From an uncultured Nitrospiraceae bacterium (GTDB lineage: Bacteria > Nitrospirota > Thermodesulfovibrionia > Thermodesulfovibrionales > Dissulfurispiraceae), in the NCBI GenBank assembly GCA_963705105.1, contig CAVPIW010000014.1, positions 160,001 to 224,000 on the forward strand: a stretch of DNA of 64,000 nt, given 5' to 3'. Position 1 is the first letter of the stretch; each line of letters begins with the position of its first letter. Position numbers and translations under genes: made by a program. The notes under the pieces are model-generated. The model was not told the origin of the DNA and did no database searches. It saw only the letters and a program-made list of their open reading frames with translations. Shown here in pieces: positions 35,957 through 42,232 of this stretch.

Positions 35957-37336
35957 TTATTCCAGGCTGACTGACGCGGGGGGCTCTGACGAAATATTCA
36001 GCTCCTTGATCATCTTCCAGAGGGTCACCCTGCTGATGCCGAGGTAGTTCGCCGTAAGGGTCCTGTTCCAGTTGTGTTTTCTCAGGGCGGCGAGAAGGCA
36101 TTCGCGGCGGTCTGCATCCGCCCCGGGGATGCCCTTGCGGTTCCTGGCCTCGACGATGTAATCGGGGAGGTCCGCCAGGCCGATCACGTCTTCCCTGCAC
36201 GATATGGCGGCGAACTCCAGTGCGTTGATGAGCTGCCGGACGTTCCCCGGCCAGTGGTATGCCTCGATCGCCTCGACCGCCTCCGGCGTGACACGCTGAA
36301 TGGTCCGGCTGTTCACCAGGTTGATGCGCCGCAGGATGTGCGAAATAATGAGCGGCAGGTCCTCCTTCCGCTCCCTCAGGGCGGGAGTACGGATAGGTAT
36401 GACATTGATCCGGTAGTAGAGGTCCTCCCGGAACTGGCCCTTCTCGACCAGCTCATGGAGGTCTTTGTTCGTGGCGGTGACAAGGCGGATGTTAACATGG
36501 ATGGGCCTGTGATCGCCGACTCGCTCGATCTCCCTCTCCTGGATGACCCGTAAAAGCTTGACCTGCATGGGTTGGGACATGTCACCGATTTCATCGAGGA
36601 AGATGCTCCCGTTGTTCGCAGCTTCGAATCGCCCCTCACGGTCCTTGACGGCGCCGGTGAATGCGCCCCTGACGTGTCCGAAGAGCTCGCTCTCGAGGAG
36701 GAATTCATTGAGCGCCGCACAGTTGACCTTGATGTAGGGACCCTTGTTCCGCCGGCTCAGCTTGTGGATCGCGAGTGCCACGAGCTCCTTGCCCGTGCCG
36801 CTCTCGCCGGAGATGATCACCGGGGCTTCACTCCGCGCGGCGTTCTGGATCTGTTCATAGAGGCTCATCATGACGGGGCTCTTCCCGTCAAGCCCCATGA
36901 ATCCCTGTTCGTGCTTGAGCTCGTGCCGCAGTTCCTCGATCTCGAGATCTTTCATGTACAGAGAGGTGACATCAGTCATCGCCTCGACGGCGCCGACGAC
37001 CTCACCGGAAGGGTCTTTCAGGACAATGGCGTTTTTCAGCAGATGGACAACGCGTCCCTCTTTCGACCGGATGTGACATTTCTTTTTCGAGACCGATCCC
37101 AATTCGAAAAGCGGGCATTTCTTGTCCTTGCCCGATTCCCCGTGAAAGACGCAGGTATCGGTATCAAGAATGGTGCAGGGTTTCCCGATGACCTCATCCA
37201 CGCAGTACCCGGTAATCTCCTCGGCGGCCTTGTTGAAGAAGAGGATGGTCCCGTCCTTGTCGACGACCATGATGCCGCTGGTCATCGTCCTGAGGACGCT
37301 CATGAGAAAGCCTGGATCGGAGAAGAATTCTTGCAT
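35957..37336 (-). CDS. PAS-domain sigma-54-dependent transcriptional activator (Fis HTH)
   Basis: GESGTGKE, ESELFGH, GAFTGA, FLDEIGD, WPGNVRQL, LGISRVTLW. Confidence 0.95.
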   Translation of the reverse strand: MQEFFSDPGFLMSVLRTMTSGIMVVDKDGTILFFNKAAEEITGYCVDEVIGKPCTILDTDTCVFHGESGKDKKCPLFELGSVSKKKCHIRSKEGRVVHLLKNAIVLKDPSGEVVGAVEAMTDVTSLYMKDLEIEELRHELKHEQGFMGLDGKSPVMMSLYEQIQNAARSEAPVIISGESGTGKELVALAIHKLSRRNKGPYIKVNCAALNEFLLESELFGHVRGAFTGAVKDREGRFEAANNGSIFLDEIGDMSQPMQVKLLRVIQEREIERVGDHRPIHVNIRLVTATNKDLHELVEKGQFREDLYYRINVIPIRTPALRERKEDLPLIISHILRRINLVNSRTIQRVTPEAVEAIEAYHWPGNVRQLINALEFAAISCREDVIGLADLPDYIVEARNRKGIPGADADRRECLLAALRKHNWNRTLTANYLGISRVTLWKMIKELNISSEPPASVSLE

Positions 37337-37534
37337 ATATTTGTGTTAAAGACGTTGTTGACTTTGAACAGTATTTAACATTATTATTAACAGATTGGTC
37401 AAGAGGGCGGTAAAATCTATTGCGTTTGAATGGTTTTATTGCTTGCATGAATCCTGCAAATGATGAGAAATCTGAATAGGGTGACCCGCCCTTGGCGGGA
37501 AAAAATATATACATCGTTCGTGCAAGGAGGCAGT

Positions 37535-38884
37535 ATGAAGGGAAAGCACAGAGGGACCTTCCTGGCACTGGCGGTGCTTGCGGCGGCCCTGCTGCTCGTC
37601 TCGACGACGGGATTGGCGCAGCAGAAGCCGAAGATCCTCAAGCCCTGCTCTCAGTGCCACAAGGCGGATGAGAAAGTCCTGCGCGGTCTGCTCGGCAACG
37701 TTTCACAGAAGGCCGAGACATTCTCGATCAACGCAGGCGGCGTCTGGAACGTCAAGTTCGATGACACCACGAAGATCGTCGGGTGGGCGGGGGAGCTCCA
37801 CAAGATCCCCAAGGAGAAGGAGATTGCCGTAACCTACGTTGAGCGTGAAGGCGCCGTTTATGCTTCAGTCGTCTCGGTGAAGCAGCCTGCCAAGATCGCG
37901 CCGGAGAAAATGCTGACCGTCGAGCAGATGGCCGATATCGTCGAGAAGGGCGACGCCGTCATCGTCGACTCGCGCCCCGCTCCCCGGTTTTACGAGGGGG
38001 CGCTCCCCGGCGCCATCAACATCTATGACGCCGAATTCGACAAGCATATCGACAAGCTGCCGCAGGACAAGAACAAGCTCATCGTTTTCTACTGCGCGGG
38101 ACCTACCTGAAGGCTGAGCCCCTCCTCTGCCAGTAAGGCGGAGAAACTCGGCTACACGAACGTCAGGATCTTCCATGACGGCATACCTGCCTGGAAGAAG
38201 TCCGGCAAGCTCACGATCGAGTGCGTCCAGTGTCTCGTCGAGCGCGTGAAGCTCGACATCCCGACGATTATTGTGGACCTGAGGTCCCCGGGCGATGCGA
38301 AGAAGGAGCATATCCCCGGCGCCGTCAGTGTCCCTATGACGGACATCAGCTCGGCCTACGAGCGTTTCCCCAAGGACAAGAGGGCGCCCATCGTCCTCTA
38401 TTCGCACGACACCAGGTCGGCCGTCCAGGCCTTCGAGGTCATCAGCATCTGGGGCGGATTCACGAACATCACCGTCCTGCAGGGCGGGTTCCCCGAGTGG
38501 AAGAAGCTGGGAGGCAAGGTCGCATCGGGAGACCTGCCGACGAAGATCGTCTATGAGCCCAAGCCGAGGCCCGGAGAGATCGGGATAGAAGAGTTCAAGA
38601 AGATCGCCGAGACGAGACCTGCGGACAAATTCATCCTCGACGTGAGAGACTCCGAGGAGGCCGAGGCGGGCATGCTCGTGGGCGCGAAGAACATCCCGAC
38701 CCAGGACATCCCGAAGAAAATAGGCGAGTTCCCCAAGGACAAGGAGATCGTCATCCATTGCACCACGGGGGTGAGGGCCGAGCTTGCCTACCACTCCCTG
38801 AAAGATGCAGGGTACAAGTCCCGGTTTCTAAACGCGATCGTCAAGATCGACCCGGCCGGCAGATACGAGATAACAAAGGAGTAA
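37535..38884 (+). CDS. Exported multi-rhodanese protein with a CxxCH motif, probable selenoprotein
   Basis: AGGAGG RBS, signal peptide, CSQCH, three rhodanese-like domains. In-frame TGA at 38108-38110 in FYCAGPT-U-RLSP, followed by a hairpin. Confidence 0.85.
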
Positions 38885-38888
38885 GACA

Positions 38889-40244
38889 TCAGAAGGGCGA
38901 CCAGCTCGGCCTGGTCGCCCTCACATTCCTCGGCGTCACCCTCTTCTGACCCTCCCCGTTGACCACCATGACATAGATCCCCTTGGCTCCGTCCCTGTCG
39001 GACGTGAAGGCTATAAACCTGCCGTCAGGGGAGAAGGTGGGGTCCTCGTTGTTGCCCCGGTCGGTCAGGCGGGCGACACCGCTTCCGTCGGGTTTCATGA
39101 CGTAAATCTGCTTTCTCCCGCCGATGAGACTCACATAAGCGATGCGGTCGCCTTTCGGGGACCAGACGGGCGACGTGTTATTTGACCCTTCGAAGGTGAG
39201 CCGCTTGATCATCTCGCCGTTCCTGTCGGCGCTGTAAATCTGGGGGCTGCCGGAACGGTTCGAGGCGAAGAGGATCGTCCTGCCGTCGGGTGACACGGCC
39301 GGTGACACATCGATCCACGGAGATGAGATGATGTTTCTCCCCTTCATGCTCGTTGCATCGCCGATGTAGATGCCGTGCCTGCCATCCTTGGAGGATGTGA
39401 AAACGAATTCCCTGCCGTCGGGGAAAAAGTTCCCCGACATGTTCAGCCCCTGGAGAATGACGAGCTCCCGTTCTTTCAGCGTACCCAGGTCAAGCACGTA
39501 GATGTTCCAGCGCCGGTTCCGCTCCGCAGCATAGAGGAGACGCGACCCGTCGGGTGACCACCGGGGCGTCAGCATGATGCCTCCCGTCAGGCCGATGCCC
39601 TGGCTGCGGTGACCGTCCCAGTCCATGAGGGCGATCTCTTTTTTCGCTCCCCGCTCAGTCACATAGGCCATGCGGGTCCTGAAGACGCCCTGCCGTCCCG
39701 TGAGGAGTTTGTAGATATCATTCGCGACGGAGTGGCCGATGGTCCTCTGTGCCTCCGCCGACCCGGAATACTCTTTCTTCAGCACCTCCCGCTGCTCGGA
39801 CACGTCGAAGGCCGAAACGACGACGGTAAGACCCTTTCCGCGCGCCACCGTCCCCTTGACGACGAGGTCGACGCCGAGGCCGCGCCACCGGTCTGCCAGG
39901 AAAGGCTGATCGGGCCGCTCGATCTGAGCCGCGTCGTCAATACACTCGAAGAGTCCCGTCATGGTGAGGTCATCCCTGACGACTGTCGAAATCTCCCTTC
40001 CGTTCGTAAATGGCTGGATCGCAATGGGGAGTTTTCTGACACCGGGAGAGGTGATATCGAGGTAGACCTTACCTTGAGCCTCACAGGGTGGGGGCACAAG
40101 GGCCAGACTCAAAACTGCGATCAGCATGCAGACCGTAAGGATCAGGCGGAGCCGGCCCGCGTTCAGGGTAATCGTGCATGGAAGGGCGGGGCGAAGCACT
40201 CCGAAAACACTGGCCGGGTTCAGTATTCCTGACGGGGTTGTCAT
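38889..40244 (-). CDS. tolB: Tol-Pal beta-propeller protein TolB
   Basis: Repeated PxWSPDG (PD40) units downstream of tolQRA; start uncertain (40244 or 40127). Confidence 0.9.
   Translation of the reverse strand: MTTPSGILNPASVFGVLRPALPCTITLNAGRLRLILTVCMLIAVLSLALVPPPCEAQGKVYLDITSPGVRKLPIAIQPFTNGREISTVVRDDLTMTGLFECIDDAAQIERPDQPFLADRWRGLGVDLVVKGTVARGKGLTVVVSAFDVSEQREVLKKEYSGSAEAQRTIGHSVANDIYKLLTGRQGVFRTRMAYVTERGAKKEIALMDWDGHRSQGIGLTGGIMLTPRWSPDGSRLLYAAERNRRWNIYVLDLGTLKERELVILQGLNMSGNFFPDGREFVFTSSKDGRHGIYIGDATSMKGRNIISSPWIDVSPAVSPDGRTILFASNRSGSPQIYSADRNGEMIKRLTFEGSNNTSPVWSPKGDRIAYVSLIGGRKQIYVMKPDGSGVARLTDRGNNEDPTFSPDGRFIAFTSDRDGAKGIYVMVVNGEGQKRVTPRNVRATRPSWSPF
40170..40215 (-). repeat. Half copy of the modular repeat at the tolB 5' end
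   Basis: TGCATGGAAGGGCGGGGCGAAGCACTCCGAAAACACTG. Confidence 0.65.
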
Positions 40245-40972
40245 GGCCTGAACCTCACGCCGATCTCCATGTCGGCAGGAGGAGGGGGCAGGGGGCTTGC
40301 CTTCTGGATGGCCCGCAGGACGGACCGGTCAAAGAGGCTGTTCCCGGAGCCTTTTTCGATCTTGTCGATCGTCACCTTTCCGTCCCGTGCGATCCGGATC
40401 GCGACTACCGCTTCGAGGTCCCTTTCGGATCCCTCCGGGAAGATCCACTGCTTTCTGATTTTCTCGACGACCATGGCGTAATAGGTCCCTCCTCCGGACT
40501 GGGCGCCCGATCCGCCGGACGTCCCTGCCCTGTCCGTCTTCGGGGCCGCGGCTGCCGTTTCCCTGCGCGCCGCCGACCCGCCCGAGGACACATCGACGGT
40601 CTTCCGCAAAGCGGCAAGTTTCTCGATTTTCTTTTTGGCCTGGAGCGCCGCGATCCTGTCGGCTACCCGGCCGTCGTCCTCTTTCTTCGTCGCTTCTTTT
40701 TTCACCGCCGGCGCCTGGGGCTGCACCGCTTTTTCACGCTCTACCGTTTTCTTCTGCTCAGGACGCTCTTCCCGCCGGGCCTGCTCCCTCACTGCGGGGC
40801 CGCCGCCGGCGGGGCGGGAGGAGACGGTCGGGCTGTCGACGAGAGAGACGATGTAGGGCATGGGAGGCGGCTTTCCCCGGGAAAGGAGCATGATCAGGAT
40901 GGCGGAGAGAAAGAGGACGGCATGGAGGGCGAGGGAGTAGGGGAGGTAATTGGAGAGGCCCCGCTTCGTCAT
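40241..40972 (-). CDS. tolA: TolA/TonB C-terminal domain protein
   Basis: TM with SxxLH, charged linker, SGNSLFDRSVLRAI..ASPLP; operon position. Confidence 0.8.
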   Translation of the reverse strand: MTKRGLSNYLPYSLALHAVLFLSAILIMLLSRGKPPPMPYIVSLVDSPTVSSRPAGGGPAVREQARREERPEQKKTVEREKAVQPQAPAVKKEATKKEDDGRVADRIAALQAKKKIEKLAALRKTVDVSSGGSAARRETAAAAPKTDRAGTSGGSGAQSGGGTYYAMVVEKIRKQWIFPEGSERDLEAVVAIRIARDGKVTIDKIEKGSGNSLFDRSVLRAIQKASPLPPPPADMEIGVRFRP

Positions 40973-41370
40973 TGCAGGGACATCTTCGGTTCCGTGACGA
41001 GCCCCAGTTTTTCGATCCCTGCCTCCTTGATCTCTCCCATCACCTCGGCGATGAGACCGTAGGGAACATCACGATCGGCTTTGAGGAAGACGTTCGGATT
41101 CTGCTTGCTCGCCGCGGACAGCCGTTTCACCAACTGCTGCGTCGAAACGGGATTGTCGTTCAGGAAGATAGCCCCCCCTTTCCTGATCACGACGGTGATC
41201 CGTTCTTCCGTGGGCATGTCCTTGCCTTTGGCCTTCGGCAGGTTGACGTCGACGCCCTGCTGAAGGAGAGGCGCCGTGACCATGAAGATGATGAGGAGCA
41301 CGAGCATGACGTCGACGAGAGGGGTGACGTTGATCTCGGACATGGCCGTTCTCTGTCTGGCGACTTTCAT
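40969..41370 (-). CDS. tolR: TolR
   Basis: EINVTPLVDVMLVLLIIFMVTAP. Confidence 0.92.
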   Translation of the reverse strand: MKVARQRTAMSEINVTPLVDVMLVLLIIFMVTAPLLQQGVDVNLPKAKGKDMPTEERITVVIRKGGAIFLNDNPVSTQQLVKRLSAASKQNPNVFLKADRDVPYGLIAEVMGEIKEAGIEKLGLVTEPKMSLQ

Positions 41371-41377
41371 GGCGTCT

Positions 41378-41505
41378 CCGCAGTGTGTGTGTGAGTGTCA
41401 GTGTCAGTGAAAGGCCTGACTGTCAAACCCCGGCAAGGATTCGGCAACCGCCGCGATGCCACCTTCGCCCCGCCTTTTCGGGCGGTATCTATAACAGTCA
41501 GTGTC
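41378..41505. repeat. Degenerate modular-repeat copy between tolQ and tolR
   Basis: GTGTGAGTGTCAGTGTCAGTG and CTTCGCCCCGCCTTTTC modules. Confidence 0.6.
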
Positions 41506-42130
41506 ATTTCTCTTTCAGGATGTAATCGACGAGCTCCTCGGAAAAGTCGTCCATATCGATGATCATCCTGTTCGCTCTGCTGAGGAAATAGTTGTAGGCG
41601 ACGACGGCCGGGATGGCAGCGGCGAGGCCGACGGCCGTCGCGATGAGGGCCTCGGCGATGCCGGGGGCGACGACGGCGAGCGATGCCGATCCGGCGCTCC
41701 CGATGCCGCGGAATGAGTTCATGATGCCCCAGACCGTCCCGAAGAGGCCGATGAAGGGCGTCGTCGATCCTGTCGTGGCGAGGAAGTTGAGGTATTTTTC
41801 GAGCTTCGCCGACTCGAGGGCCGCATACCGTCTGAGCATGCGCTTGAGCTCGTCGCGGTCGATGTAGGTCTTTTCGGCATACACGGACCGGAAGAGGTTC
41901 GACAGGGGGCTGACGGCATACTTTTTCGACGCAGAAAAGAGATCCTTCGGGTCTCTCGTCGAGTTGTAGATCCGGAGGAAATGCTCGGTCTCCTTGTCGG
42001 ATCCCTGAAAGTGGCGCCATTTCTGGAAAATGATCGCCCAGGACACGATGGAGAAGAAAAGAAGGCATATCAGGACGGCCTTGACGACGTAGCCGGCCTG
42101 CAGAATGAGTTGTAACGCCGATTGTTCCAT
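41504..42130 (-). CDS. tolQ: TolQ
   Basis: TPFIGLFGTVWGIM, VAPGIAEALIATA; AGGAGG RBS before ATG at 42130. Confidence 0.93.
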   Translation of the reverse strand: MEQSALQLILQAGYVVKAVLICLLFFSIVSWAIIFQKWRHFQGSDKETEHFLRIYNSTRDPKDLFSASKKYAVSPLSNLFRSVYAEKTYIDRDELKRMLRRYAALESAKLEKYLNFLATTGSTTPFIGLFGTVWGIMNSFRGIGSAGSASLAVVAPGIAEALIATAVGLAAAIPAVVAYNYFLSRANRMIIDMDDFSEELVDYILKEK

Positions 42131-42232
42131 AGACCTCCTAAATCTTCTCACTTTATCCAATATCTTTTTAAAATGTCAAATTGTCGCATCATTTCAGTTG
42201 CTTTTTTCCCCAATGCTGCGGTAATGTGCAGT

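Follow-up and report, generated by a model that had tools for sequence, protein, structure and literature searches.

The window analysed here is a stretch of 64,000 nucleotides, within which positions 37535-38884 of the forward strand form a single frame of 449 codons with one internal stop, the TGA at 38108-38110. The original prediction had proposed that two open reading frames, 37460..38110 and 38246..38884, belong to one frame interrupted by this TGA alone, inside the stretch FYCAGPT*RLSPSSA, and both the list of open reading frames and the translation bear this out. Read through from ATG 37535, the product has 449 residues, with U192 lying within C187-A-G-P-T-U192. The features of the locus are as follows.

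35957..37336, minus strand: divergent sigma-54-dependent activator (open reading frame context)
37485..37499, plus strand: leader hairpin (or palindrome) of 6 bp and a 3-nt loop, covarying in Sec-form relatives (leader comparison)
37524..37530, plus strand: Shine-Dalgarno sequence AAGGAGG ahead of ATG 37535 (sequence)
37535..38884, plus strand: whole gene, 449 aa, predicted Sec at 192 (translation; full-length Cys homologs of 437-497 aa)
37535..37618, plus strand: predicted general-secretion signal peptide (by eye; helix in the AlphaFold model)
37646..37660, plus strand: CSQCH c-type heme attachment motif, C38/C41/H42 (invariant in an 86-sequence alignment)
37676..37879, plus strand: OB-fold beta barrel, approximately residues 48-115, CusF/DUF5666-like (model, fold searches)
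37910..38206, plus strand: rhodanese domain 1 with the C187-x4-U192 loop, C187 codon 38093-38095 (Pfam 128-222, homologs)
38108..38110, plus strand: TGA predicted to be read as selenocysteine (homolog column, relatives' codons, Sec machinery)
38112..38153, plus strand: SECIS-like hairpin, its conserved part being the inner stem 38125-38143 with loop G 38133 (fold, covariation)
38210..38530, plus strand: rhodanese domain 2, loop YSHDT lacking Cys (homolog alignment, structure)
38222..38233, plus strand: CVQC (230-233), a clade-specific CxxC opening domain 2 (locus comparison)
38570..38881, plus strand: rhodanese domain 3 with C409 in a CTTGVR loop, codon 38759-38761 (C409 in 89 of 89 homologs)

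The in-frame TGA and its flanking elements

The TGA is no sequencing error, because a TGA at the same codon occurs independently in 26 of 29 related-genome loci; with the present locus counted, the 30 loci of this set comprise 27 with TGA and three with TGC. A contig from run X1, which is possibly the source of this DNA, spans 37300-38941 with zero differences, and TGC or TGT, named in the original prediction as contrary evidence, was found in none of the contigs listed. Three short, near-identical contigs from RNA run X15 lie on the gene; one of them crosses the TGA, by six bases only, and they are not proof of transcription. A homolog search listed 120 proteins, 89 of which, having at least 400 aa, were taken as full-length, and the alignment that the original prediction had proposed as a check places Cys opposite U192 in 88 of these, with C187 and C409 present in all 89. 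Across 80 GTDB loci, a set that overlaps the 30-locus set in several genomes, the codon is TGA in 25 cases, TGC in 49 and TGT in six, with no other codon observed. The genome itself carries tRNA-Sec together with selA, selB and selD scoring above cut-off, which is the machinery whose presence had likewise been put forward for checking; its selD itself contains a TGA, and a search of 61 genomes of the order recovered selA in 59. In a quick tree built from 83 rows after masking the Sec/Cys column, six changes between Sec and Cys were counted, at least three of them forced, and Cys forms are nested among Sec forms; the nearest named relatives belong to the Thermodesulfovibrionales (Nitrospirota).

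Taken as a prediction from these comparisons, TGA 38108 is almost certainly decoded as selenocysteine. The alternative, a genuine stop codon in a split gene or a pseudogene, is extremely improbable. Public gene callers do list the two halves apart (25 of the 120 matches are 256-aa fragments starting directly after the UGA, and 25 of 146 representatives terminate at Cys-x4), but a stop would cut domain 1 inside its active loop, such that the first rhodanese domain is complete only upon read-through, as originally argued; moreover, both halves are open and conserved, and over the 110 locus records the UGA column is solely TGA, TGC or TGT, never TAA or TAG. Fragments of 256 aa are what is expected when gene callers stop at the TGA.

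In the bacterial SECIS model a stem-loop lies shortly 3′ of the UGA and has a G early in its apical loop. The two-stem hairpin of the original prediction matches the minimum-energy fold, with an outer stem 38112-38118/38147-38153, an inner stem 38125-38131/38137-38143 and a loop AGUAA (38132-38136) that begins 21 nt past the UGA, so that a SECIS-type stem-loop with an early apical-loop G is located directly 3′ of this codon. Depending on the span folded, z ranges from -1.4 to -2.7, with 17, 2 and 4 of 200 shuffles equally good; taken alone, the fold is only modestly better than chance, and the case for the hairpin rests on conservation. Pairing over the 27 TGA loci reaches 94% in the inner stem and 76% in the outer one; 13 changes in the inner helix are two-sided, and one of 500 shuffles scored as high. 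Among the 80 GTDB loci, TGA forms keep 6.8 of the 7 inner-stem pairs and Cys forms 4.6, and a loop G is present at 23 of 25 TGA loci against 12 of 55 Cys loci. This conservation is partly owed to protein sequence and to descent, and L031 and L035, Cys forms that are close to Sec forms, retain the stem.

Ahead of the gene, the leader contains CCCGCC-CTT-GGCGGG, in which invariant G-C and C-G pairs surround a freely covarying pair. A hairpin of 6 bp and 3 nt, 23-37 nt upstream, was found in 12 of the 45 distinct leaders of Sec forms as against two of 53 Cys-form leaders, shuffled leaders giving a mean of 0.7 and a maximum of four, for a pattern that was set after the data had been seen. These 12 leaders display 94% pairing, a value that leans high because the rows were picked for pairing, together with 11 two-sided changes and a middle pair that takes five forms. 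The strict pattern occurs once in the organism's own genome, at this gene, and an RNA stabiliser, a regulatory element or a DNA operator are candidate readings of it. An Rfam search over 37250-38950 gave nothing credible, with one match of 21 bits against a 40-bit cut-off. A canonical sigma-54 promoter of correct spacing was not found in the window; in six close relatives a sigma-54 site was recognised by pattern or by eye.

Domain architecture and relation to known proteins

The AlphaFold model of the whole chain (pLDDT 89.9) comprises a signal helix, a beta domain and three rhodanese domains. The signal peptide has a basic start and a hydrophobic helix at 7-25, with the twin Arg absent, and on these features the protein is likely exported to the periplasm. 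The CSQCH motif of the original prediction is indeed present, at C38, C41 and H42, and is invariant across the 86 aligned sequences; among 236 proteins having the Cys pair, 223 have CxxCH, eight CxxxxCH and five another residue, the His following the second Cys in 231. The CxxCH is placed on a short five-residue helix in front of the OB barrel. Modelled alone, the N-terminal domain reaches pLDDT 96, and in fold searches it matches CusF (Foldseek, E 5e-4, TM 0.60), Atlas DUF5666 (TM 0.68) and generic OB folds (VIA-align, with middling Z values of up to 7.3). No cytochrome fold was among the matches listed for this domain, which does not thereby exclude a cytochrome, and the protein has no cytochrome Pfam match above noise. 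A conserved sixth heme ligand, either Met or a second His, was not found inside the N-terminal domain; M380, elsewhere in the chain, is near-invariant in the closer set and absent from 23 of the 80 wider loci. An exported protein with a conserved CxxCH is here encoded in a genome that has maturation genes, in the form of two cytochrome c assembly genes (PF01578). Exported CxxCH motifs in cells with heme-attachment genes are normally ligated, and the CxxxxCH spacing is known from c3 cytochromes. The CxxCH therefore probably binds one c heme, a prediction drawn from the sequence. When complexes of the N-terminal domain and each of the three rhodanese domains of the Cys homolog P0006 were predicted, heme being included, the values were 0.00, 0.62 and 0.00, which give no answer either way.

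Three Pfam stretches confirm the further rhodanese domains that had been predicted, with the qualification that a loop Cys is found in domains 1 and 3 only. The six-residue loop of domain 1 has Cys in first place and Sec in last; at the loop Cys position of domain 2 there is Ser here and Asp in 74 of the 89 homologs. The CVQC linker was also predicted correctly at 230-233, but is confined to the closest clade (eight of 30 and seven of 80 loci, all of them Sec forms with identity of at least 63%) and lies outside the family core. A sequence search found no solved structure for the family, and no NCBIfam model scores above cut-off for the protein.

Predicted selenium-containing rhodaneses of this kind have already been catalogued. 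The table in a 2026 review (PMC13188914) gives five rhodanese selenoprotein forms, form 1 being UxxS, WP_010941598.1, for which it cites Zhang and Gladyshev 2005, and the supplement of PMC2825233 contains Geobacter sulfurreducens GSU0930 as 'sulfur transferase, putative, selenocysteine-containing'; the list of eight G. sulfurreducens selenoproteins in PMC1794560 includes no rhodanese. Like form 1, the present protein has PF00581 and a U-x-x-S motif (URLS). A full-length CxxCH family member, P0126, is GAB4297419.1, named 'sulfur transferase selenocysteine-containing protein', and the family-level genome set for Geobacter sp. OR-1 includes a TGA form (L123). Matched by motif, name and annotation, the protein likely belongs to the form 1/GSU0930 family, and we infer that WP_010941598.1 and GSU0930 are one protein of the same architecture. 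Neither the form 1 nor the GSU0930 entry mentions a heme motif, an OB domain, a location or a function. Hence the precedent of Sec-containing rhodaneses invoked in the original prediction holds in that the protein probably falls in an already listed predicted family, whilst its architecture appeared in none of the studies found by full-text search, although subscription papers or supplements may hold one. The same literature searches found no bench study of this protein and, in main texts, no mention of GSU0930.

Several characterised proteins share parts of this arrangement. Sud of Wolinella succinogenes (PDB 1qxn) has in common the periplasmic rhodanese fold (Z 11.2) and the link to polysulfide reductase; it is, however, a 30-kDa homodimer of a single-domain, 137-residue chain lacking heme motif, OB domain and Sec, unlike the three rhodanese domains and OB domain found here, and the comparison is offered only as a claim that the two may work alike, drawn from gene context. 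We take the Cys-led loop of Sud to end in Arg, as does the domain 3 loop, and on this assumption liken the C409 loop to a CxxxxR loop of Sud. MccSep/ExtKL resembles the protein as predicted here in being periplasmic, in combining c heme, Cys and Sec for polysulfide chemistry and in being common in Thermodesulfovibrionia, but has five hemes and forms a tetramer on an unrelated scaffold, in contrast to one CxxCH with rhodanese domains here. ExtH (GSU2940), compared by its description in PMC5877670, is a rhodanese-like protein of about 49 kDa that has a porin and a small exported protein as neighbours; it is called a lipoprotein and is not described there as a selenoprotein, and the neighbours in our window are not ext genes. 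The rhodanese selenoprotein TsoB (NF045694, UxxxxU) shares the x4 spacing but is a DsbD fusion, and the present protein scores 57.7 bits against its cut-off of 805; for the single-domain rhodanese_LYCAU (NF041203), also a selenoprotein, it scores 85.6 bits against 115, and the motif is C-x4-U rather than CxU. The best structural and profile matches are the tandem rhodanese proteins PA2603-like 1yt8, YnjE and EanB, which nevertheless have 15-19% identity, another arrangement (whole-chain rmsd approximately 19-23 Å) and neither CxxCH-OB domain nor Sec.

Gene neighbourhood and sulfur respiration

In the window the gene is solitary, with the divergent sigma-54 activator on one side and a convergent tolB-like gene on the other; such an activator is found in the flank of eight of 25 Sec-form loci. 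The convergent gene is part of a tolB-tolA-tolR-tolQ-like operon at 38889-42160 (minus strand; names assigned by eye), which is adjacent in L054 too.

Around the Cys forms, a PsrA/PhsA-like gene flanks 30 of 55 loci and an Fe-S subunit 29 of 55 (within up to 6 kb), the best NCBIfam match of the PsrA-like neighbour being PhsA. In Geobacteraceae the order is a DUF3373 protein (an outer-membrane candidate), a 107-aa exported protein, the rhodanese gene, and PsrA-like, NrfD-like and Fe-S genes, joined sometimes by an octaheme cytochrome; Betaproteobacteria have another order, with the psr-type genes upstream of the rhodanese gene. No psr-type gene is present at 24 of the 55 Cys loci, several of them on short contigs, and none at nine Holophagaceae Cys-form loci. 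A PsrA-like match is seen in the flanks of two of 25 Sec-form loci only; in L036, 5 nt separate the end of the TGA form from a downstream gene for a twin-Arg (Tat-exported) PsrA-like protein.

MccSep is a demonstrated polysulfide reductase, the electron donor of which is given as unidentified in PMC13510729. An MccSep gene was found in the flanks of none of the 80 loci, and the organism's own genome, in which dsrA is also present, encodes an MccSep/ExtKL tandem (G000:C6:765276-766541 and 766951-768114) with five CxxCH and one TGA in each gene. MccSep occurs in 25 of 31 related genomes with the TGA form, five of which (G002, G013, G020, G033 and G049) were counted with the TGA position unchecked, and in 11 of the 29 genomes without that form (Fisher p 0.0013, tallied by hand and overstated, as kin are not independent). 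Three of the six TGA-form genomes that lack MccSep have a close PsrA and the other three have neither, and among five genomes with only Cys forms none has MccSep or a close PsrA. The best PsrA match of the organism's own genome has no twin-Arg signal and sits with TauE genes. Overall, the gene context points to polysulfide handling. As a separate observation, G000:C7:122532-124601 encodes a PhsA-like molybdoenzyme without twin-Arg signal beside split TauE genes and a sigma-54 regulator, and many relatives have similar genes.

Small exported proteins with a terminal Cys recur in these genomes. The 107-aa neighbour in Geobacteraceae operons (e.g. L078:5544-5864), which lies upstream of the rhodanese gene and mostly directly so, ends in KTAGC at 17 of 17 loci and has no Pfam or NCBIfam family above cut-off; it is a candidate for a periplasmic carrier of sulfur whose arm is tipped with Cys. 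When the profile of the N-terminal domain was compared with these KKTAGC proteins, the probability was 21% over 21 columns, and hmmsearch returned nothing inside threshold. One family member, P0258, carries a fused C-terminal KKKKAKAAGGGC arm, and a fused GGGC tail is seen in one of 205 full-length members. ExtJ is present in 37 of 61 genomes; that of the organism itself (above cut-off) ends in Cys and adjoins a YeeE-type transporter gene. Three predicted exported proteins of the same genome, at G000:C6:151938-152261, C5:324735-325232 and C6:596835-597425, have a Lys-rich tail ending in EGC, and are ExtJ, a one-CxxCH cytochrome and a probable lipoprotein.

Proposed role and alternatives

Considered together, these features make it rather likely that the protein is a periplasmic CxxCH-OB-triple-rhodanese selenoprotein that takes sulfane sulfur from polysulfide and hands it to a reductase. 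We accordingly lean towards an exported, Sud-like carrier for polysulfide respiration, with two active rhodanese sites, a Cys-Sec pair and one heme, as the best reading. In such a mechanism, all the chemical steps of which we infer, the inner hairpin would be read by SelB with insertion of Sec, and the protein would be exported unfolded and receive its heme from the genome's own cytochrome c maturation system. C409, C187 or both would take sulfane sulfur from polysulfide to form a persulfide, which U192, closing the six-residue loop of C187, could then attack or resolve, the cycle running via a C187-U192 selenenyl-sulfide; the heme might give or buffer electrons for this pair. The sulfur would pass to PsrABC if the genome has that operon, or in genomes like this one to MccSep, with the small Cys-tailed periplasmic carriers as possible intermediates in its delivery to the reductase. 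Sud itself may enhance Psr activity (PMC4288042).

A more active role can be envisaged for the heme. Tentatively, the protein could be a one-heme selenoenzyme in which an OB-barrel c heme is wired to Cys-x4-Sec, reducing polysulfide or feeding MccSep/PsrABC with both sulfur and electrons, and the small Cys-ended periplasmic carriers (KKTAGC/ExtJ-type tails) would then be its partners. It is unlikely that the protein acts in its own right as a small reductase of polysulfide or persulfide, equivalent to MccSep but with one heme and built on a rhodanese scaffold. In that case C409 would load sulfur, C187/U192 would free sulfide and the heme would feed electrons from the periplasmic cytochrome pool. 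The invariant heme motif, the Cys-x4-Sec pair and a second active Cys all in one chain would suit this, as would the mostly solitary Sec-form genes with their own regulator and the fact that MccSep cleaves polysulfide using heme, Cys and Sec (PMC13510729), but the dedicated reductase encoded nearby at 30 of the 55 Cys loci points to a helper rather than a duplicate, and the reaction needs two electrons where one heme gives one.

The opposite possibility, that CxxCH forms a structural disulfide or holds a metal in a plain Sud-like sulfur carrier without electron transfer, appears improbable. It draws on the position of the motif, on a five-residue helix before an OB barrel and not in a cytochrome fold, on the want of a cytochrome Pfam match above noise and on relatives that lack the motif (L093, L100 and L126), rhodanese loops being kept in relatives of this type; set against it are the 231 of 236 proteins in which His follows the second Cys, the CxxxxCH spacing included, and the usual ligation of exported CxxCH motifs wherever heme-attachment genes are present. 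Traffic or reduction of selenium oxyanions (selenite/tellurite), as discussed for the Geobacter ext cluster, is likewise improbable as the role of the protein. That cluster is implicated in selenite reduction and pairs ExtH with a porin, ExtJ and MccSep (PMC5877670), and Geobacteraceae operons similarly pair our protein with the DUF3373 outer-membrane candidate and a small Cys-tailed protein; yet the neighbours are Psr/Phs-type and octaheme genes, an ExtH-type model is absent from the 19 NCBIfam families matched, and Sec in a protein does not mean a selenium substrate.

If the carrier reading is correct, this widespread protein is a candidate for the polysulfide-delivery step in Nitrospirota, Desulfobacterota and Betaproteobacteria, a step which to our knowledge is known mainly from Sud in Wolinella. 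The Sec assignment is by itself ordinary; what this analysis adds is the connection with psr operons and with MccSep, a candidate partner with a Cys tail and the covarying 5′ leader hairpin. Should the OB barrel indeed carry a c heme, it would be an unusual cytochrome domain. Gene callers split the protein in two wherever it is of Sec form. The natural Cys forms ease expression, and the probable ortholog GSU0930 sits in a genetically tractable organism.

Further rhodanese genes were noted. Two others in the same genome contain an in-frame TGA, at G000:C6:833301-833537 (VTY*ASG) and C12:101776-102024 (LYCA*P), and fit other listed Sec-rhodanese motifs, and G000:C10:173440-177592 holds at least two more with CxxxxC loops (CNGVKC and CGFTKC). 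Around distant Geobacteraceae paralogs (about 30% identity), whose loops are without Cys, no ext cluster was seen. Paralogs with the same OB and three-rhodanese layout in which CxxCH is absent occur at L126:5905-7206 and in L136-L140; one, beside an octaheme cytochrome, retains the Cys loops, and others have lost the Cys. Finally, the organism's genome includes tRNA arrays of 23 genes at G000:C4:10181-12340 and of five genes at C3:4215-4664, the GC content of C3 being 67% against about 57%; these contigs are possibly foreign, or a mobile tRNA array.
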